Assembly: GCA_951406725.2 (NCBI GenBank)
Contig: OX597824.1
Location: 31,868,001 to 31,932,000 of the forward strand
Direction: 5' to 3'
Length of the DNA stretch: 64,000 nucleotides
From: Octopus vulgaris
Taxonomy: Eukaryota
Shown: piece after piece, positions 20,288 through 62,442 of the stretch
Layout of the letters: each line of letters begins with the position of its first letter
How positions within the stretch are numbered: the stretch's first letter is position 1
The notes under the pieces: generated by a model
Seen by the model: the letters and a program-made list of their open reading frames with translations, nothing else
The model's database searches: none
Told to the model about the DNA's origin: nothing
Translations under genes and position numbers: made by a program

Positions 20288-20493
20288 GTGAAATAGAAAG
20301 ATGAATAATCTTGTAGTAGATTAATCAAAAGTTTAACCGATACCTTAGTAGCAAAAATCACAGCAGTAAACAGCACGGTTGGAGGTACAACCATATGGTG
20401 TTGCAACCGTGCGTTGGTGCGGATAATTGAAATTAAAACATTATTGGTGAATTGAAGAAATGGAGCTGAACGCAGATTGAACAGAAATCGTTT

Positions 20494-20587
20494 TATTTCA
20501 TTCTACACGTGTTTCGAAAGGCACAAATTACCAAAATCCGATTGAATAATGGGACCATATTGTGTCTATCTCTTCAGGAAGAAAATA
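20494..20587 (-). ncRNA. Type I hammerhead ribozyme, intact core
   Basis: tattttcttc CTGAAGA gatagacacaa...ttgtgcctttc GAAAC ACGT GTA^ gaatgaaata; perfectly palindromic stem III ACACGTGT. Confidence 0.82.
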
Positions 20588-21296
20588 GGAAATCCGTTGG
20601 AAAAACAAAAACAGAACAGAGGCGGAGCAAAAACAAATCGAACTATGCTCCTAAGAGCCCATGGCGAAACTGTTTATCAGTGTATGTTGAGAACTGGTGG
20701 CTGAAGAATTTAACGGGTCAGGCATCGGTCAATCATGTGGGTGAGGGTGTGTGGGTGTTCTTTGTGACCGAGAATAAAGTTCTGACTATTTAAGGAATAT
20801 TGGATGTTTTATAAGGGGCGAGAAAAAATCTACTTAGAGACGTGTGTGTGTGTATACTGTTCTATATATGTGTGTGTTGGCGTAGGGGTAGAAAACATTT
20901 TTTGTGTACGTGTGTGTGTTTGATCGTTCAGCTGTCAGTGGCTACTGCCGCGAGAACCGTTGGGTGGCAAAAAAAAAATATATATATTATGTTTTATGTG
21001 TGTGTGTGTTCATCTAAGCCTGCCTTGTCAAGGAAACCCCCCGCTGTGAAAAAACCAAGCCCCGTTTGTCTTACAGGAGTAATTCCCCTTGCAGTGGTTA
21101 ATCGTAGATATCTTAAAGGCTATTTCAGAATTTGTTACCAAGGGCTATGGGTGCCGGTATTATTTATAAACGCTATTTAAAAGCCACCGGTTCTCAACAT
21201 ACACTGATAAACAGTTTCGCCATGGGCTCTTAGGAGCATAGTTCGATTTGTTTTTGCTCCGCCTCTGTTCTGTTTTTGTTTTTCCAACGGATTTCC

Positions 21297-21390
21297 TATT
21301 TTCTTCCTGAAGAGATAGACACAATATGGTCCCATTATTCAATCGGATTTTGGTAATTTGTGCCTTTCGAAACACGTGCAGAATGAAATA
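21297..21390 (+). ncRNA. Inverted copy of the same HHR with cleavage triplet mutated GTA to GCA
   Basis: CTGAAGA at 21307-21313, GAAACACGTGCA at 21369-21380. Confidence 0.7.
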
Positions 21391-21480
21391 AAACGATTTC
21401 TGTTCAATCTGCGTTCAGCTCCATTTCTTCAATTCACCAATAATGTTTTATATATATATATATATATATAAATATATAGG

Positions 21481-26845: not shown

Positions 26846-26926
26846 TTATGCTTGAAGTATATATGCTGGAGGAGTAGTGAACGCCTGGCCGGATTGCATG
26901 TCAACATTACTAGTAGTTTGTACAAC
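26846..26926 (-). CDS. MS4A-like gene, last coding exon (VVQTTSNVDMQSGQAFTTPPAYILQA*)
   Basis: tatattttacag acceptor, phase 0, PPAY (PPxY) motif, TAA at 26848-26846. Minus-strand AATAAA near 26694-26699. Confidence 0.75.
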   Translation of the reverse strand, partial: VVQTTSNVDMQSGQAFTTPPAYILQA

Positions 26927-29474
26927 CTGTAAAATATATAAATTTTTAACTGATTAAATCCCTTTAAGAGTAAAATATTTTTGCTTAGAAGCAACTTTTT
27001 TACTATTTCTTTCAATAGACATTTAATTACTTACACCACACACAAACACACTCACACACATGGAATTGGCTAATACTCTTTAATTAGAAGTAAAACTGAA
27101 GGGTGTAGAATAGTTATTGCATTATAAACTTAGCAGTTTAATGAGGAACTCACTGAATTAGAAACAGAAACAATAACAGATAATGAAGTAAAAAAGTCCA
27201 CTATTTGTTGGATCGACAAAGTTCTGATGTACAATCACTTCTTGAGTGTACATACCATCATTTAGGCTTCCAATAGTTCCTGGTTGTTATTTCCCCTTTA
27301 ATTTTATTTACTTTTTTAATCACTACATACTGAAGAATTACCCTAAATTGGGGCTAAAATGAGGAATGACTAATTTCAATAATTTCTTCTCTTTAACGTC
27401 ATGGTGCATAAGTGTACCAGGAACAGAACCAGGTGTAATTCTGCTTCAAGCACCCCATATTACCCTTGTAACTTTCCTTGTTAGTTTGTCACTCAGATGA
27501 ATCCATGTATTTCAATATCTTTCTTCCTATAAATACATTTAATAGCATTTAAGCAAAATATTTGGACTGCCTGTATTTTAAACTGTGATTTTTAAAAATT
27601 CAAAATATTAAAAATAAAATAATTCTTTTTAAATTTCGAAAAGTTAAAAAAAATTTTTTCATAATCATATGAATTCCCTTTCGAAGAATGCAAATTTGCA
27701 CAAATTTTCTGAAAATTCCAAAAATTATAAAAAGATTACATAAGGTTATAAGGGGTACCTAAACCAGAATTCTGCTGAGAGTCACTCCTGCAAATTGTAA
27801 AGAAACTATAGAGAATATTTTACAGTGAATTTTTTTATCTTTTTGAGTTTTGATAATTTCATATCATGCCATTTTCCTGTGATTCTTTACATTTGACCTA
27901 GATATTACAATTTTTTTTTTGAATTTTTGATCTTTGTGGTATCTAAGAATCAATATTGATGTGTATGAGTTAAAAAAATTTTTTTTTTCAAATGCAATTC
28001 TGGAGAATTGAAGGGGCATTTACTTAATCTTGTCTTACTCATTTTGCCACATCTAAATTATCTTCTGTATGCTCATAGAGAACAGAGATGATTTTCTGAA
28101 ATAGTGTTCTGAATATGTTATAGTGTTTTTAATGTATTTAGAGCTGATGTAGTTTTTGTTTGGAAGTGAACACTTGTAAAAAATTTAATTTTCTCAGAGT
28201 TAAAAATGCAGAAATATTATTCATTGTGCCCACCACTCCTTACAGGAAACTGAAAAAGCAGACTTTCGGAGCACCTGTCATATATGTTAGAATTTCCATG
28301 TCTATGTCAAGATTTTCCATTTCTTTCATGCATTGTAAAACAATGGAGGGAATCATTTTTAAAACAAAAAGTTTTTAAATCTCTGTCTTTTAAATGCTCA
28401 ACTCCCTCCCACACACACTCACCATGCCTTTGGAAAAGCAACAACTACTAAAATTATATACTTTTCTTTTTCATAATTTTCTGTCATTTTATCATTCTAT
28501 ATTCTGAAACATTTGTAATTTGCATTAGAGAAAAATATCTTAACCCCACTTCCCTCCTTCGTTGTACTTTTCACAATGAAGGAAAAGTCAAACACTGCAA
28601 GAGGATGTGTGAGAAAAAAACTTTGAAAAGTGTATCTATAAAGCATCATTTTCAGTTGTTTGTTTAAACTTTCTCTGCTAATACGCCAAATTCCTTATAT
28701 ACAGTATATGGGTTTTGAAATTACCAACCCATGCTAGCATGGAAAGCGGACGTTAAAAAACGATGATGATGATGATTAAGATATTTCTTCTTAATATGAA
28801 ATCAATGGTAGTCTTAATACACAAATAAAGAGTATATATATATATATTTGTACACCTTCATTATCATCATCATCATTATCATCATTTCATGTCCATTTTC
28901 AATGCTGGCTTGTCATGCATGGTTAGACTGGAGCTGACAAGCTGGAGAGCTTCATTAGCCTTAAGTTATCTATTTAAGCACAGTTTCTATGACTGGATAG
29001 CTTTGCTAACTCCAACCCACTTTACAGAGTGTTCTGGACAGTTTTAACGTGGCACTGGCACCAGTAGGGTCGCTAAGTAACTTGTAAGACAAGGACCTCT
29101 TAGTAGAGAGAGAGAGTGGAACTGAGCGAAGTGGCTATGTGCCAGGTGAGAAAGTGTGAAAGAGGGACAGAGATAGGTGTCTTACTATAGATGAGATACT
29201 AGGCTATCCCAGTAGGTAAAGGAAGGTGAGAAATAGTTAGGCAGAGACAGAGTGAAAAAGAGAGGGAAATAGATGGTGTTGGAGATGTATTGGGGTCTAC
29301 CCAGAGGGAACAGTGGTGGGGAGTATAAACAGTACAGAGGTAATATGTTTAGAGATTTGGTCGATACCAATCTAAAAAGAGCAACTGTCACACATTGTAA
29401 GAAGGCATAAAAGGTATGAATTTTTCTTCTTGAAATAATAGAAATGATTATTAAAGAAAATAAATTGAACTTAC

Positions 29475-29594
29475 TCTTGTTCCTGAACAGCAACAGCAAA
29501 TTGATGAAGAAACAATAGCCAAAATAAATTCCACACTCATAACAAATGCAGCACAAGCAAATAAAACATGTAAGCCATAAATGCCATAGTAAAG
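29475..29594 (-). CDS. MS4A-like gene, coding exon 4 (LYYGIYGLHVLFACAAFVMSVEFILAIVSSSICCCCSGTR)
   Basis: tttctttcctttacag acceptor, 120 nt, GTAAGT donor, phase 0-0. TM4 carries the EFxxAIxSSxxCC signature and a juxtamembrane Cys cluster. Confidence 0.87.
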
Positions 29595-31039: not shown

Positions 31040-31129
31040 AATCCATACTGAATGAATACTAAAACAAGTCATTCCAGCAATTGCGAAGAAACATGCTGAC
31101 AAAATGGCAAGGACCATGTAGGCAATTTT
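31040..31129 (-). CDS. MS4A-like gene, coding exon 3 ([30 protein letters not shown])
   Basis: atttctttacag acceptor, 90 nt, GTAAGT donor, phase 0-0; TM3. Confidence 0.85.
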
Positions 31130-31500: not shown

Positions 31501-31755
31501 CACACACATACACATATATATATATATATATATACGTATATACATATATATATTGTGTATATGTATATATATGTATATATATATGTATATATATGTATAT
31601 ATATATATGTATATATGCATATATATATATGTATATATGTATATATGTATATGTATATATATATGTATATATGTGTATATATATGTATATATATATATGT
31701 ATATATATATGTATATGTATATATATATGTATATATATATATGTATATATATATA

Positions 31756-31802
<47 letters not shown>

Positions 31803-31865
31803 GTATGTATATAAATATATATATATATATATGTATATATGTATATATATATATATATATATGCA
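31455..31865. repeat. Compound (TA)n/(TG)n microsatellite, representative of many in the window
   Basis: Directly visible. Other long tracts at 541-640, 12720-13180, 34020-34211, 52360-52438, 53610-53828 and 62555-62674. Confidence 0.95.
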
Positions 31866-32735
31866 TACAAAGGAGCCATACCCAATGATGGGTGTAGCAA
31901 TTAGAGCAAGGTCGTCAACTGCTACAAAGGTAAAGTAATGCTTTAGATACAAATAATTACATAGGTATGAAGCCGTTGGATCAGGTAATGAAGGTCACAG
32001 AGAGGGTCATAGCCCAACTAATTAGGAGAGAGTCAGTTTAGATGATATACAGTTTGGGTTCGTGCCAGGGAAAAGCACCACTGATGCTATATTTCTGGTA
32101 AGACAGCTGCAGGAGAAATACCTAGCCAAAGATATATCTCTATACCTGGCTTTCATTGACATGGAGAAAGCCTTTGACAGGGTCCCCTGATCCCTTATCT
32201 GGTGGTCAATGAGGAAACTAGGGATAGATGAATGGTTAGTGAGAGCTCTGCAAGCCATGTACAGGGATGCTGTCAGTAAGGTGAGGGTTGGCAACGAGTA
32301 CAGTGAAGAATTCTGGGTAGAGGTAGGGGTCCACCAAGGTTCAGTCCCCAGCCCCCTCCTATCATAGTCCTCCAGGCGGTGACAGAGGAATTCATGATAG
32401 GATGCCCCTGGGAGCTCCTCTATACTGACGACCTTGCTCTAATTGCTGAGTCACTATCAGAACTCAAGGAGAAGTTTCAGGTGTGGAAACAAGGATTAGC
32501 TAATACCAAAGTCCTAATAAGTAGGAAGGCAGGCAAACCACAAATCCCTTCAGGTAGATGGCCCTGCTCAATCTGTAGATAAGGCGTAGGTAGAAATTCC
32601 AGATGTACCCAGCGTAAGCTATGGACTCATAAGAGGTGCAGCAATATCAAAGAACTGGGAAGATAACTTTTGTATGTTTCAGATGCTCAGAAGCAATAAA
32701 CACTAAAAATGTGCAAAAAACAACTTCCGCAACAC
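31865..32735 (+). mobile_element. Second fragment of the same RTE LINE family
   Basis: Colinear with 34211-35070, more decayed; ELLYTDDL motif. Confidence 0.88.
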
Positions 32736-32991
32736 AGTAATATAATTTTTCTCAAACACTTTAACAGAGCAAGAAGATGGGAGCTGTCATCTCACTCTTG
32801 TCCTTTATTGTAAACAGACACAGGCCTCTAGTCTTAGATTTAGTAGTTGATAAAGAGATATATGAATTAGAAAGCTGTAACCCCAATGGGTTTCATGCGA
32901 TTCTTGAAAATGTAGTCTATTCTTAGCTCCAATAGCAACAACATTAATTTCTTCCATCTTGTGGACTTGGTATATAAAAACGGAAAGAAGC

Positions 32992-33056
<65 letters not shown>

Positions 33057-33082
33057 GTATGTATGTATGTATGTACATGCAC

Positions 33083-33116
<34 letters not shown>

Positions 33117-33580
33117 CAACATCACAATCAAGGAACGGCCATTTATAGGCCATTCACCCACTAGAAATAACAGCCAAAGCTTCAACCGCAAAATAACATT
33201 AATTCCGCAAACCAGGAGAAAATTAAAAAACATTTACCCTGTAATTTCTTATACGATGCACCGTTTCATCTACTGTTTAATGGTAAACTAACCTGATTAA
33301 ATTAAATCAAGCCAATCTTCCATAGGCCCTTAGATTCGTCAGTAAGAAATAGCCACATCGGAACAGATATTTTCACGAGGCATTTTTGTCCCTGCCTCGG
33401 CAATATCTGACCTAAAATTTTCAAATCATCGCACTCGCGCCAAATTTATCGGCAGCAAATAAATATAAGCCGCCGATTCCATTACGGAATCAACCAGAAA
33501 ATTCATAATTAATCAATATAGGGTGCCAAAAAAATTTTGTAGAATTTTTTTGCCACCAGCGGCCTATATTGATTAATTAT
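33117..33580 (-). mobile_element. PLE-like terminal repeat fragment inserted in (TA)n
   Basis: Unique block between TA tracts that carries a complete HHR; a 16-bp inverted repeat (aattaatcaatatagg/cctatattgattaatt) marks its 5' end. Confidence 0.6.
33244..33350 (-). ncRNA. Complete type I hammerhead ribozyme
   Basis: atttctta CTGACGA atcta...tagat GAAAC GGTGCATC GTA^ taagaaat. Perfect 8-bp stem I, long extended stem II, near-palindromic stem III ACGGTGCATCGT, GUA triplet. Confidence 0.88.
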
Positions 33581-34014
33581 ATATATATATAGCTATATCT
33601 CTTTGACTGCTATTTCTAAATTCGGTGTGTTGGTGAGGCAACTCGTTGCTAAACCCTTAATTACTTAGTATATATATATATATATGTATGTATGTATATG
33701 CATATATACATATATATATGATGGGCTTCTTGAGAAAAATTATATTGTGTACAACTCGTTAAAATTCTATTTATGTATTTGTGCAGCTGATGATGGCACT
33801 CCATTTAAATTGAGGTAATGATTGCATTGTTCAATTAAAGGGTTGTACTGCAACGCTACTTGATATCCTGTTGATTATTTTGATTTAATTCACCTTACTT
33901 TGAGCTGTGCTGATAATATTAGATTGACTTGGTGCTTCAACAGAAGTACCTAATTCAACTGAATCTCAAATATATAATATATATATATATACATATATAA
34001 TTATATTTATATAC

Positions 34015-36177
<2,163 letters not shown>

Positions 36178-43900: not shown

Positions 43901-44331
43901 TATATATATATATATATTAGGGAACTATTAGACCTGACACCGTGTATTAGCCACTGTTTTCAAAGTGATGAATAGCTTTTTGCGGAAACCATGGTTCGCT
44001 TTGTTTTCTGACTTTATTATCATCCTATAATCATCTCCTAACAATGACTTTTATGACTTTTATTACTACCTCAGTCCATCTAAATGTATATATTTGTCGT
44101 TACCTGTTATAAAAAGTCTTTTTTATTTGCAATGAGCATTTTCATTGATTTTTCATCTTTTACTCTTACATTTCCACGTGTATTTTATAATTTCTTTTTG
44201 TGACATATTTCTACTATATATATATATCTTTATATGTGTGTAAATATAATATTATATATATAAGAATTTTTTTGCGTAATGAGATAAAAAAACCAAGGCT
44301 GTGTAGATATTAGAACATTTATAGATAGAAA

Positions 44332-44383
44332 GTCTTACACCTGTTTCCAGGATATTTGTTAATTATATCCCTTCATCAGAGAC
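44332..44383 (-). ncRNA. Type I hammerhead ribozyme, tandem copy 1
   Basis: gtct CTGATGA agggatat-aattaacaa-atatcctg GAAAC AGGT GTA^ agac. Confidence 0.78.
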
Positions 44384-44687
44384 GGTGTGAGAGGATGGTT
44401 AAGTCATAATTAGTTTAGATGTGATACAAAATAGAGAGTGAGGTGGAAGAATGAAAATTGATGCAAGATATGTAGGGATATTGAAGTTTTAGATCCATTT
44501 TTTAAGGCAGAATTGTATATATGTCATATTCCAATACCCTATGAGTAAAGTCCAAAAGTCCAACAGAGTTTTAAATGGGTCCTTCCAAATATAGAGTTTA
44601 TACACTATGTATGATTCCCTTATGAATGAGATCTAGCAGTTTTTGAAGTTGGTCATGTATTACAACACATATTTTTGATATATATAA

Positions 44688-44726
<39 letters not shown>

Positions 44727-44949
44727 TTTGTATCTATGTATGCATTTATATGTGGATGTATGTATGCATTCTGTTATTTTAGTTTAGGGGTAACTTTAAC
44801 TAATATACTTAGTAGCAAAGTTGTGAAAGAAAACATTTTGTGTAAATATAATATAATATATATATATATATATATATATAAGAATTTTTTTGCGTAATGA
44901 GATAAAAAAACCAAGGCTGTGTAGATATTAGAACATTTATAGATAGAAA

Positions 44950-45001
44950 GTCTTACACCTGTTTCCAGGATATTTGTTAATTATATCCCTTCATCAGAGA
45001 C
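44950..45001 (-). ncRNA. Type I hammerhead ribozyme, tandem copy 2
   Basis: Identical to 44332-44383. Confidence 0.78.
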
Positions 45002-45306
45002 GGTGTGAGAGGATGGTTAAGTCATAATTAGTTTAGATGTGATACAAAATAGAGAGTGAGGTGGAAGAATGAAAATTGATGCAAGATATGTAGGGATATT
45101 GAAGTTTTAGATCCATTTTTTTAAGGCAGAATTGTATATATGTCATATTCCAATACCCTATGAGTAAAGTCCAAAAGTCCAACAGAGTTTTAAATGGGTC
45201 CTTCCAAATATAGAGTTTATACACTATGTATGATTCCCTTATGAATGAGATCTAGCAGTTTTTGAAGTTGGTCATGTATTACAACACATATTTTTGATAT
45301 ATATAA

Positions 45307-45852: not shown

Positions 45853-45924
45853 CAGTGAATTGGTTCTGTGTTCAGGATTTGACTTCAAACCAGTAAGAAT
45901 TCCAAGTATTCCAACTGCAATAAT
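45853..45924 (-). CDS. MS4A-like gene, coding exon 2 (IIAVGILGILTGLKSNPEHRTNSL)
   Basis: gttttgtttag acceptor, 72 nt, GTAAAA donor, phase 0-0. Joins exon 1 to give W-II-x-GILGI, typical of CD20-family TM2. Confidence 0.85.
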
Positions 45925-47656: not shown

Positions 47657-47956
47657 TGTTGTTCCTTCTCGATCCATGCTTGGCTCATAAGGGCTGGTTT
47701 CCCGGTTTCTTGGTGTATAGGTTCCCCACCTGGACGGGATACCAGTCCATCGCAGTTGAGCTGCAAGATGCAGGAGGAAAGAGTGAGAGAAAGTTGTGGC
47801 GAAAGAGTCAGCAGAAGTTTTGCCATTACCTTCTGCCGGAGCCACATGCAGCTTAGGTGTTTCGCTCATAAACACACACATCGTCCAGTCTGAGATTCGA
47901 ACCCGCGATCCCTCGACCATGATTCCGCTGCTCTAACCACTAGGCCATGTGCCTCC
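47657..47956 (-). mobile_element. tRNA-derived SINE family D
   Basis: Head ggaggcacatggcctagtggttagagc..gggttcgaatc (A and B boxes). Confidence 0.8.
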
Positions 47957-48958
47957 AAAGAGTATTGTACTATAGCCTCAACTACAATCTTCACAATTGC
48001 TCTAATTGTTGGGTCCAACTATCACTGAAGACCTTTCCTTAACATAGCTAGGATTGTATGCCAAATACTGACCATTCTTTTCTGGGCTACAAAATATTTC
48101 TGCCTCAACAACTGCCGACACTTTACAAAGCTCAACTGAGGATTACAATGAAGTATTACTCTCATCTGGGACTGTGTTTCTGCTACATATATTCACATTC
48201 TGGACCATATTCAGAGAAGAAAAAGCCCTAGATCAACAAGCATAAAATCAGGCACAGATATGTTCTAACCTTTGGCACACTGGTGTACTATATCTTCTCT
48301 TATCTGGGACAGTGTTCCTGCTATGTATACTGAATCTCTGGACCAATATGTGGTCCCCAAATAGTCTGTAAGGGAATTAGGTCTCAAATAAAACTAACAC
48401 TGACTATGATGACCCATCCAGCCAATACCAGCATGCAAAAGCAGAGGTAAAATGAAGAAAATGGCTTAAATATTTTAGCAAATAAACAATGAAAAATGAA
48501 TTAAAGTAGAAATTTGAATCCTTTTCTACCAATAAAATACAATTATTATTTCCATGGAATATGAGGCATTCCCAAAATAAATTAAATAAACACTTGGTGT
48601 CATCATTATCAGCCAAAGGCATTACTTTATGGATATTTTAAACCTGTGAATTCATTTGTTATCCTAGGATATTTGAAACAGTTTGATTTCTACTGTAAGA
48701 TATTTTATTGCATGTTCAGTTTGGGAGTACTCCAAACCATTTTGGGTAGGTTTCAATTAGTCTTAACTATCAGCCTATGACCCCAACATCAAAAATGGTA
48801 GTATTGGTACCTCATAACAAATAAAGAAGAAACAGTTTGAAAACTAAGTCAAAAGTTCAAAGGTTTTTTTTTCCATCAATAAAAACAACTGAAAAATTTA
48901 GTTGTATCAATACATCTTTGATCAATATAAAACTGTCACAAAGAACACCAATACTTAC

Positions 48959-49162
48959 CCATAGACTTGCAGTAAATGATCCAGCAGCAATCCTTACAGA
49001 CAGATCATCATAAAGATAACTATCATAATAAGAACCATGGTAAATGTTGTAGTATCTGTGTGTTGTAAAACCGATTATTGAACAAATGAGACAAAATATT
49101 CCAAGAGTCAAATGCATTGCTCCCGTTATTGTCATCGCAAGGTAGTTGAAACCAACAATCAT
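48959..49162 (-). CDS. CD20/MS4A-like tetraspan membrane protein, coding exon 1 (68 aa)
   Basis: Acceptor tttctttatatttag ends at 49176, ATG at 49162. Reads MIVGFNYLAMTITGAMHLTLGIFCLICSIIGF...AAGSFTASLW, followed by donor GTAAGT at 48958. Contains hydrophobic TM1 and the start of TM2. Confidence 0.88.
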
Positions 49163-60152: not shown

Positions 60153-62276
60153 CTATCCATGTGGTATATTTATATTTGACATTTTAAATTTGGTTGCGTG
60201 CCTACATAAGTTCATTAGCTCACTTCTTTGATTCAAAGAATTATTGTCTTTGAATAAAATGTACATTTTTTCTAATAGGCAAAGCTTGCATTTAAAATTA
60301 TTTCTGTGTGCTCCATGCCTGTATGGTGCCGCTCTGTCCAGAATGCTCCATGTCACGTTGAAAGGTGAGGTTTCCTTTTCTTTTAGTTCCCAGACATATT
60401 TTGCTAGGCTGGTCCTCATCCTATTCTCTGGGTATTTAAATGAATTTTTATGTGAATAAAATCGTGTTTTAAATGAATTTTCTGAAGCCCCTGTGTATGT
60501 CTTGTATTCTGATGAGCCTTCTACTTGCACCTTGGCTCTATAAACTACTCCTTTCACTAGACATTTCCCTTCTAACGGACAGGAGTTTTCGTTTTTGAAA
60601 TTGCATTTCTTAATGGGCTCGGCACCATATCTAATCTCAATTAGCTTCCTATTATGCTGGCTAATGTAAGAGGCGAAATTTCTGCAACAAGAATAGCTAA
60701 CCTTCAGGGTTCTTCTATTAAATATCCTATAGAATTTATGACCCTGCTTAAAATGCTTAGAGACTAATCTCAAAAATTCCTTACCTATATTAGTCCTTAC
60801 GGCCAAATTGAAAGCCGGGTTGAACCACAAAACTTTCCTGGTCCTAGTTCTTCGTGCAGCATTATTACCAGCATTAAGCTGGTTGTACTGGATCTTCTCA
60901 GAGAATCCACTATTCTTTAATGCGCTATCGTAATAAGGTGCAGCATTATGGAATGCTGCCTCGTCCGAAGAAATTGAAGATATTCTTCTACCTACATTGC
61001 TGACTAAGTTCCTAAGGATAACTGGTGGATGGTTCGAATCTTTGCTAATATACGATAGCTTTTCATTGGGCTTACGGAAAGGTTTAAATCTATCCGACCT
61101 TACATTAAAATTTACGTCTAAAAAATCTACACTATTCAGGTTAGCATCTATTGTAACCCGTAAGCCCATCCTTTGAAAGAAAGCAATAAGTCTATCTGAT
61201 TCATGGCCGTTTAGATTATGCGTGGCTATAAGGCCGTCATCCCTATATAAACCTGCATCTATAAATGGGAATTCTATTTTTAGATTATGGAGAATAAAGG
61301 CTCCTATGAGCATACATAACTCAGCCCCGTCGTATGCTCCCATCGGTACATCGAAAAGAGAGTCCTCAGTCTTCTTAATCCAGGTGGAATCCTCGAAAAA
61401 AAGAAGCGATTTCCTCGCATGCATAATAATATCAATTTCCGAGCTATCGATATTGACATACTGCTTGGCGAAGTCCAATGCCCTTAGGAGAAACGTCCTA
61501 GATATTGACGGGTAAAAGTCAATAATGTCGAATTGTGTGAAACTACAATTATTCTTATAGCTAATACCTTTAAACCACTCTATGACTGACTTACTATTCT
61601 TCCAAATTCTCAAGTCTACTTCACTATCTAACTTAGCTAAAATACGGTCCAAAATATTTTTGCTAATAATTCCTATCTCAGTTTTAGCCGGATTTATCAA
61701 TCTACATTTGGGGTTTCTATTAAAATTGGCTTTATGGTCTTTCAGAGTAATAAAAGCTGGTCGTGGTGAAATATATTCAATCCTATCGCTAATCTTAAGA
61801 TCGTTAGCTATTCCTCTTGCTTCTAAGTTCACCTCTTTGTATATATTCGTGTTATCTTTTTTGTATGTGTCTGTGACACTATTCGAAATCAGGCGCTTAT
61901 AAACGTCCTTATCAAGTGCATATAAGTTCCTTGTCTTATCAGAATTAACGAAGATCTTATTCGAGTTGTTAATCTCCTTAATTTTTTCTCTCATATTTCT
62001 CTGTAATTCGTTGGTATATTTGCGGAATTTAATTTTCCTAATAAGCTCGAAAAGGTCTTTCTCGAAGGCTTCTAATTCCGGAATAGGTGGCGGGTTTCTG
62101 GGAGATTTAAATCCATATTTGTTTCCTTCTATTTTCTGTTTAGTATCAAAGAAGAAGGCTTTCCATCTCAATCTTCGAATAAACTCTTCCGTTTTCTCTA
62201 TAAGACCTTTGAGATATTGCTTCCGTGCAGGGATAGGTATATTTTTCTGAGAAAAATCCAGCGGGTAAAGTTCCAT
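60153..62276 (-). CDS. PLE reverse transcriptase with C-terminal GIY-YIG endonuclease, 707 aa
   Basis: N-terminal KNIP...FIRRLRWKAFFF, SDKT, RT motifs KDHK, CRLINP, FDIIDFYPSI, PMGAYDG and YRDDG. Endonuclease region SYSC..HN..CPLEGKC..GVVY..YTG..FKTRFYSH..CKLCLLEK..LNQRSEL..CRH. Confidence 0.93.
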   Translation of the reverse strand: MELYPLDFSQKNIPIPARKQYLKGLIEKTEEFIRRLRWKAFFFDTKQKIEGNKYGFKSPRNPPPIPELEAFEKDLFELIRKIKFRKYTNELQRNMREKIKEINNSNKIFVNSDKTRNLYALDKDVYKRLISNSVTDTYKKDNTNIYKEVNLEARGIANDLKISDRIEYISPRPAFITLKDHKANFNRNPKCRLINPAKTEIGIISKNILDRILAKLDSEVDLRIWKNSKSVIEWFKGISYKNNCSFTQFDIIDFYPSISRTFLLRALDFAKQYVNIDSSEIDIIMHARKSLLFFEDSTWIKKTEDSLFDVPMGAYDGAELCMLIGAFILHNLKIEFPFIDAGLYRDDGLIATHNLNGHESDRLIAFFQRMGLRVTIDANLNSVDFLDVNFNVRSDRFKPFRKPNEKLSYISKDSNHPPVILRNLVSNVGRRISSISSDEAAFHNAAPYYDSALKNSGFSEKIQYNQLNAGNNAARRTRTRKVLWFNPAFNLAVRTNIGKEFLRLVSKHFKQGHKFYRIFNRRTLKVSYSCCRNFASYISQHNRKLIEIRYGAEPIKKCNFKNENSCPLEGKCLVKGVVYRAKVQVEGSSEYKTYTGASENSFKTRFYSHKNSFKYPENRMRTSLAKYVWELKEKETSPFNVTWSILDRAAPYRHGAHRNNFKCKLCLLEKMYILFKDNNSLNQRSELMNLCRHATKFKMSNINIPHG

Positions 62277-62442
62277 CTTTTTCAGCTGTTTGTTCTTCCT
62301 ACTTGTGCAGAGTCGCTCAAACTTTTATAAGGAGCGGGTTACACCGGAGTAAACACATAAATGTGAAACAAGGTGGAAAAAAGAGTACTCAAATACCAGT
62401 GGTAGAGTAATATGCTTTATTTAAAGCAGCAGAAAATTCAAC

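Follow-up and report, generated by a model that had tools for sequence, protein, structure and literature searches.

We consider it very probable that the hammerhead motif in this stretch of the Octopus vulgaris genome is the ribozyme of a 489-nt non-LTR retrozyme, present as a single copy shorter than one unit in an intronic (TA)n tract. The copy was likely inserted by a Penelope-like reverse transcriptase/endonuclease; it is probably a near-neutral passenger of its host gene and is predicted to be a poor cleaver without a partner ribozyme. The passenger reading follows from the youth of the insertion and the high copy number of the family. As a regulator of the host gene, the hammerhead probably counts for little, being among a great many recent insertions. 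The window, here and below, is the whole 64-kb stretch of DNA that was analysed. The parts of the motif are as follows.

33244 to 33350, minus strand: type I hammerhead (stem I of 8 bp, CUGACGA, stem II, GAAA, stem III, GUA)
33350 to 33343 and 33251 to 33244, minus strand: 5' and 3' strands of stem I, 8 bp
33342 to 33336, minus strand: CUGACGA core
33335 to 33331 (AUCUA) and 33272 to 33268 (UAGAU), minus strand: outer part of stem II, 5 bp
33317 to 33305 and 33298 to 33286, minus strand: inner helix of stem II, 13 bp, beyond an internal loop
33267 to 33264 and 33254 to 33252, minus strand: GAAA and GUA
33253 to 33264, minus strand: self-complementary stem III, predicted to pair between two ribozymes
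33251/33252, minus strand: predicted cut, 3' of A17 in the GUA triplet by hammerhead numbering

The first-pass annotation had described a hammerhead with all core nucleotides, an 8-bp stem I, a stem II extended by a long inner helix and a cut between 33252 and 33251. Each core base was found on the minus strand between 33350 and 33244, the two helices are present at the positions listed above, and the cut agrees with the hammerhead numbering. The cleavage triplet is GUA and not GUC. The motif has the CUGANGA, GAAA and UH elements and the three helices of a type I hammerhead and is open at helix I, and internal loops follow both stem I and stem II. Stem II measures 68 nt, which bears out the remark that the motif is larger than the usual minimal hammerhead of Penelope-like elements (PLEs). 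The full type I descriptor matched once in the 64-kb window and in none of 100 locally shuffled windows. The 116-nt hammerhead stretch folds with z = −3.4, and none of 200 shuffles was as stable. An Rfam scan of the window returned 128 matches at E ≤ 1, none of them to a hammerhead family, probably because the 68-nt stem II defeats the models. The hammerhead, with a complete core and in sense orientation in an intron, is a real motif.

The ribozyme lies within a 465-nt insertion (33116–33580) in a (TA)n tract. The insertion is 98% identical to a 489-nt tandem repeat unit, which we numbered from the predicted cut, and it has the following parts.

33116 to 33566, minus strand: long arm, 451 nt, made of unit 174–489 followed by 1–135, with one ribozyme
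33566 to 33580, plus strand: short inverted second arm, about 15 nt (unit ~221–236), which ends at site B and is followed by (TA)n
33116 to 33133, minus strand: site A (unit ~124–135), a fixed 3' end abutting (TA)n and putative priming site of the reverse transcriptase
33505 to 33523, minus strand: site B sequence (unit ~218–236) inside the long arm, the second fixed end of the family
32986 to 33115, unstranded: target microsatellite rich in (TA)n, lying 3' of the element

The long arm differs from the family column majority at five positions (about 1%), and the insertion thus appears young. Tandem arrays of the unit have a period of 489 with 99% matches between units, and one array runs to about 14 units. 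In a search with 461 nt around the ribozyme, the 40 best of 1,163 candidates yielded 257 matches, many of them in tandem. A 26-nt word from the 3' half of the ribozyme has 716 exact matches in the genome and a 19-nt unit word has 3,279, with zero matches to the reversed control in each case. For the circular form of the unit the predicted folding energy is −147.4 kcal/mol (z = −5.7, 60 shuffles), with 63% of the bases paired. The unit is short, non-coding and tandem, carries one type I hammerhead per unit and is dispersed over many loci. Its GC content is under 50%, and, to judge from ends that directly abut (TA)n, it has no arrangement of LTR, PBS or PPT. By its sequence, the family is a non-LTR retrozyme with thousands of copies in the genome. 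This membership explains the size and conservation of the motif without a role in the host; the hammerhead is not a host element but belongs to a young insertion of a high-copy family, which the first-pass annotation had missed. The window copy, at 451 of 489 nt, lacks the two consecutive ribozyme-bearing units by which Li et al. define an active copy and, with one ribozyme, cannot excise a unit. Other loci of the family do carry two consecutive units. Target-site duplications are unreadable inside (TA)n. Related fragments of an RTE-like LINE (31676–32787 and 33970–35678) flank the (TA)n tract of the retrozyme, 2.3 kb apart. We also noted a retrozyme subfamily with a GUC triplet and units of about 493 nt (loci L148, L149, L154, L156, L159 and L160).

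The octopus family resembles the metazoan non-LTR retrozymes in its non-coding tandem units with one type I hammerhead each, in a GC content under 50%, in its self-paired circular fold, and in the presence of dispersed monomers, multimers and PLEs in the same genome (PMC7229834; bioRxiv 10.64898/2026.07.22.740005). Solo monomers such as the window copy are a described class of metazoan retrozymes (bioRxiv 10.64898/2026.07.22.740005). The unit of 489 nt compares with 170–400 nt in the invertebrate account (PMC7229834) and with 51–972 nt in the 2026 survey (bioRxiv 10.64898/2026.07.22.740005). The 68-nt stem II and the cephalopod host set the family apart from the retrozymes in these accounts, and its fixed A and B ends, two-armed layout and (TA)n targeting are absent from the retrozyme descriptions compared (PMC7229834; bioRxiv 10.64898/2026.07.22.740005). 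The hammerhead is large and canonical, unlike the minimal form in PLEs (PMC4209133). Known retrozymes occur as circular RNA, whereas the octopus family is known here from DNA and RNA contigs (PMC7229834). Judged on these features, it is an additional member of the known non-LTR retrozyme class. Searches of the open-access literature (main texts) turned up no work on retrozymes of cephalopods or on the ends of these elements.

Conservation of the ribozyme was assessed in 42 loci with a full ribozyme, taken from 69 loci on contig C1 for which the site-B end was the sole selection criterion. No deviation occurs at the 11 fixed core positions (0/462), against 190/4,032 elsewhere. Variation in working hammerheads is tolerated at certain positions, and it is at these that the family varies. 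Position N7 is C in 10 loci, G in 5, A in 9 and U in 18, and N17 is A in 28 and C in 14. One pair of stem II is A–U in 28 loci, G–C in 10 and mismatched in 4. The covarying changes are each confined to one subfamily or shared by related copies, so they represent few independent events. The comparison of copies indicates that selection on the ribozyme acts at the level of the family. An intact core is no guarantee of activity, since one of nine predicted Xenopus retrozymes cleaved in vitro (bioRxiv 10.64898/2026.07.22.740005).

Stem III has 4 bp, including one G–U, with a UGCA loop, and is palindromic. Its predicted energy is −0.1 kcal/mol as a hairpin versus −17.5 kcal/mol as an intermolecular duplex. 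The earlier claim that stem III is long enough to fold as a monomer holds only marginally: the 4-bp palindrome has a predicted monomer pair probability of 0.00–0.04. The loop centre is GC in 32, AU in 9 and AC in 1 of the 42 loci. The double change from GC to AU, found in one subfamily, keeps the palindrome and would therefore matter only in a dimer. In equilibrium predictions, which leave out tertiary contacts, the bare ribozyme (127-nt motif) forms stem I with a probability of about 0.8 (0.81). With the intron flanks included, the active fold is predicted to lie 2.1–9.4 kcal/mol above the minimum with a stem I probability of 0.00–0.31, in part through pairing of the upstream flank with the stem I 5' strand. 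Stem III is thus predicted to be built for dimers, and the single window copy, without a partner ribozyme, to be a poor cleaver alone. A short palindromic helix III is described as impeding cleavage of the monomer, which a second copy nearby restores (PMC4209133). Counting against a strict dimer rule, co-transcriptional cleavage of retrozyme monomers with a short helix III reaches ~0.8 per min in coral and ~0.1 per min in mussel (PMC7229834).

The host gene was mapped on the minus strand, with the following coding exons.

48959 to 49162, minus strand: coding exon 1, from homologous proteins mapped back; X1 and X8 contigs show its splice to exon 2
45853 to 45924, minus strand: coding exon 2, donor of the ribozyme-holding intron
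31040 to 31129, minus strand: coding exon 3; the cut lies 2.1 kb upstream of its acceptor
29472 to 29594, minus strand: coding exon 4, approximate (tblastn ends)
26849 to 26929, minus strand: coding exon 5, approximate (tblastn ends)

The ribozyme lies in the 14.7-kb coding intron 2; about 2.1 kb separate the cut from the start of the following coding exon at 31129. Since the host gene is on the minus strand, the hammerhead is sense to it; the orientation and the distance to the exon 3 acceptor given in the first-pass annotation agree with this exon map. That annotation had also placed the motif in intron 2 of an MS4A-like gene. The intron number stands for coding introns, but the family label falls below the Pfam cut-off: CD20 (PF04103) scored 13.7 bits against a cut-off of 27.9 (E 0.067) in one of three homologues. 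A Pfam search with coding exon 1 alone gave no family. The three homologues, found among 18 candidates in a search with coding exon 1, are uncharacterised Octopus proteins in the naming of the source. By eye, the host protein has four hydrophobic segments and a Cys-rich end, and the MS4A-like label is plausible but unproven. The lengths of RNA contigs suggest one more, non-coding exon upstream. Exons 1 and 2 are joined at canonical ends in contigs of two of the four runs (X1 and X8), and in X2 and X11 the contigs do not cover the host exons. With 12–15 differences from the window in 217 letters, the exon 1–2 contigs must derive from a paralogue or relative and are uninformative on the window allele.

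The host region is duplicated 57–59 kb away at 97–99% identity, as part of a tandem segmental duplication (window ~14800–64000 versus C11 ~31941000–31999000, offset 57–65 kb, 94–99% identical). The duplicated copy holds two insertions that are identical to the window insertion over 461 nt; they lie 2.3 kb apart in the same orientation within C11:31957979–31960733 (loci L002 and L001). Double cleavage there would release a 2.3-kb intron piece, which could circularise. As a separate observation, the divergence between the duplicate gene copies is greatest in the coding-exon-1 loop (91% amino acid identity), and the two named homologues show the same pattern. These mosaic differences suggest gene conversion or fast evolution.

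The amniote ultraconserved intronic hammerheads are single-copy, deeply conserved and sense, and lie in a long intron upstream of an exon. The octopus copy shares with the CPEB3 intronic ribozyme a single sense self-cleaving motif (cleavage here being predicted) in a long intron upstream of an exon, whereas the CPEB3 ribozyme is single-copy and deeply conserved and the octopus family young and high-copy with a dimer-type stem III (PMC10919898). From the same retrozyme origin, the copy could act as an accidental or co-opted attenuator, cleaving the pre-mRNA as a monomer so fast that host mRNA falls or that splicing has to bridge a broken intron. Intronic cleavage of the host pre-mRNA is physically possible, and the sense motif with its intact core 2.1 kb before the acceptor would be placed for it. 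An engineered intronic hammerhead lowers Actg1 mRNA (PMC12069562), the CPEB3 ribozyme modulates its own mRNA (PMC10919898), and the co-transcriptional cleavage of the coral and mussel monomers (PMC7229834) and the predicted stem I of the isolated ribozyme (about 0.8) point the same way. In the duplicated gene, the stems III of the two identical ribozymes, 2.3 kb apart, could pair in cis. Against this, the native flanks are predicted to cut the stem I probability to 0.00–0.31, with monomer stem III at ≤ 0.04, and the polymerase at the cut is 2.1 kb from the acceptor compared with 9.9 kb in Cpeb3 (PMC10919898). The insertion is also young, differing from the family majority by about 1%, and retrozymes often sit in introns as passengers: 42–44% of Xenopus copies are intronic (bioRxiv 10.64898/2026.07.22.740005). 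The single copy expected of a co-opted intronic ribozyme is also missing, with 716 exact copies of the ribozyme word in the genome. We therefore regard an attenuator as improbable and prefer the passenger reading. Sense intronic copies, if polymorphic, would be natural experiments on the tolerance of a cut intron.

The outer ends of the insertions fall at two sites that abut (TA)n: A at unit 120–146 (mostly 127–135) and B at 227–242 (mostly 236). In its commonest form, site A has 465 exact junctions in the genome, and site B has 947 exact junctions with (TA)n. Among 74 loci selected by their ribozyme, 48 are two-armed with the arms joined 5'-to-5'; 43 of the 48 have A+B ends, none A+A or B+B, and five have one end off-site (for loci L052 and L066, only the first two arms entered this count). 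The 69 listed site-B junctions of C1 include 55 two-armed insertions, 48 of them B+A, seven B+off-site and none B+B; 12 loci are common to the two sets. Opposite arms of one insertion differ by 0.74% (285/38,501) and units within an arm by 0.76%, compared with 2.61% between insertions, and the opposite-arm difference is the lower one in 43 of 45 loci. The values of 0.74% and 2.61% imply that both arms come from one template. The arm junctions (n = 63) show microhomology of 1–7 nt in 37 cases, extra bases in 19, a blunt joint in two and longer overlaps in five.

This layout carries the insertion footprint of PLEs: an AT-rich target, partial tandems, an inverted 5' copy and a tail at one end. 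A PLE protein cuts and extends both strands of AT-rich DNA and has two internal start sites for reverse transcription (PMC11167929), and PLEs leave inverted 5' copies with a tail at one end only (PMC8557442). The octopus family resembles EN+ PLEs in its AT-rich or (TA)n targets, partial tandems and inverted 5'-truncated copy, and further in its two internal starts, its tail at one end and a 3' end downstream of the hammerhead (PMC11167929; PMC8557442). It differs from them in having no ORF, and its A–B distance of about 105 nt, longer than the published PLE tail of 30–40 nt (PMC11167929; PMC8557442), counts against the PLE reading. The RT plus GIY-YIG ORF of an autonomous PLE was found neither in the window insertion nor in the arms of the 69 site-B loci. 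The family was likely spread by Penelope-type enzymes, to judge from these footprints. Earlier work proposed, on the grounds of co-occurrence and resemblance to pLTRs, that PLEs mobilise retrozymes and that the template is circular, but offered no mechanism (PMC7229834; bioRxiv 10.64898/2026.07.22.740005). The A+B rule, the single template and the stop confined to the first pass described below name the exact RNA, priming sites and target for such a mechanism.

The family, its tandem arrays, (TA)n targets, A and B ends, A+B layout, shared template and conserved core are directly visible in the genome, and we propose the following route from them. Transcripts of the arrays would self-cleave, most readily when the palindromic stem III pairs two ribozymes as a dimer, and the monomers would be ligated into circles. 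A PLE enzyme would nick both strands of a (TA)n tract and prime two cDNAs on a single RNA, one from each of the sites A and B. These cDNAs would then be joined 5'-to-5', often at microhomology of 1–7 nt. The templates would be partly cut linear RNAs, on which both arms stop just before the cut, and partly circles or uncut multimers. Retrozyme sequence occurs in contigs of all four sequencing runs compared (28–30 of 30 bins covered), two of which contain RNA by their spliced joints; contigs cannot show circles. In the same four runs another intronic repeat is far deeper than the retrozyme, and read-through could give the retrozyme contigs. A ~300-nt repeat at 47659–47957 of the window, probably SINE-like, has very high summed contig depth in four runs.

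The 5' ends of the family pile up just downstream of the predicted cleavage site. In the full contig-C1 series of site-B loci, from which the stop statistics were taken, 73 of 121 arms extend past the cut, and the length of 42 exceeds one unit. On the first pass, 21 of 94 arms (22%) stop in unit 1–30; the remaining 30-nt bins give 24/500 (p = 3e-7). In 7 of 47 insertions the two arms share such a stop (p = 4e-4). Later passes, for which the numbers are small, show no significant excess, with 4/44 against 67/1,162 in other bins (p = 0.26); over all loci they give 9/132 against 148/3,088. The pattern suggests two template classes: a linear RNA cut by the ribozyme, and an RNA without an end at the cut, which is most simply a circle. 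Uncut multimers are a possible second class. The window copy crosses the cut site once and would thus come from the class without an end at the cut.

We lean, with slightly better than even confidence, towards reading the genome as a record of retrozyme spread in which a dimeric Penelope-type enzyme primes both (TA)n strands at two fixed RNA sites. It would copy either cut linear RNA, with both arms stopping at the cut, or a circle, with arms of up to ~14 units and no further stops. If true, this would be direct genomic evidence for germ-line hammerhead cleavage in vivo and for rolling-circle reverse transcription. Copying only from uncut or partly cut linear multimers, with no part for circles, is a less likely account that we would still give perhaps one chance in a few. 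Uncleaved RNA is the dominant in vitro substrate of the anole PLE (PMC11167929), a multimer transcript of the homogeneous arrays (0.76%) would also give matching arms, and a few multi-unit arms do stop in unit 1–30 (the 4/44 later passes). Random partial cleavage or pausing at the ribozyme fold would, however, give a similar rate on each pass, and the observed rate drops from 22% on the first to near background on later ones (9/132 vs 148/3,088). It is very improbable that the repeat is a terminal repeat (pLTR) orphaned from an autonomous PLE, or that DNA recombination spread it as a satellite. Xenopus retrozymes resemble pLTRs (bioRxiv 10.64898/2026.07.22.740005), and the window itself holds a PLE with minimal hammerheads in its repeats. 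None of the 69 consecutive listed site-B loci, however, has a PLE ORF in its arms, and a dispersed family whose 3' ends are fixed, whose 5' ends vary and whose arms are inverted bears the marks of retrotransposition, not of recombination. These features largely refute the pLTR and satellite reading. 

We searched for an autonomous partner and identified none. Twenty site-B loci without the exact ribozyme word are all retrozyme fragments or subfamilies, none of them autonomous. The genome contains a young Neptune-type PLE family with 6.2-kb tandem units, open frames of 884–1,009 aa and 1,284 exact end words. Close to the 3' end it carries the variant core CCGACGA; the family terminates in (TA)n, and its end word before (TA)n is similar to that of the retrozyme (GGATTAAAATTATA vs TGATTAATTATA). 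The retrozyme unit had no significant match in 30 Neptune-type loci, taken to 1.5 kb past the matched ORF stretch (best E 0.54), and an A-like word near the end of the Neptune-type element had no match at a (TA)n junction. Without significant shared sequence or a shared second site in these comparisons, this family was not accepted as the partner and is at best a candidate. The window holds the following further elements.

~36567 to ~40529, minus strand: 5'-truncated copy of the young Neptune-type PLE, in the same intron as the retrozyme
60153 to 62324, minus strand: Penelope-like element; its 723-aa frame, measured from stop to stop, shows RT-like and, at the C-terminal end, GIY-YIG-like motifs by eye
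44945 to 45010 and 44328 to 44392, minus strand: two identical hammerhead-like motifs in the same intron, sense to the host gene

The PLE at 60153–62324 has direct repeats, each with a minimal hammerhead core (62481 and 59028), next to (TA)n; a Pfam search with its 723-aa frame gave no match. The two hammerhead-like motifs consist of CUGAUGA, a 25-nt stem II region, GAAA, a short palindrome-like stem III and GUA. They lie in a ~616-nt tandem duplication and belong to a family different from the 489-nt retrozyme. Elsewhere in the window, an inverted repeat of 269 nt (20434–20702 and 21182–21450; 99%, 479-nt spacer) is a possible MITE.
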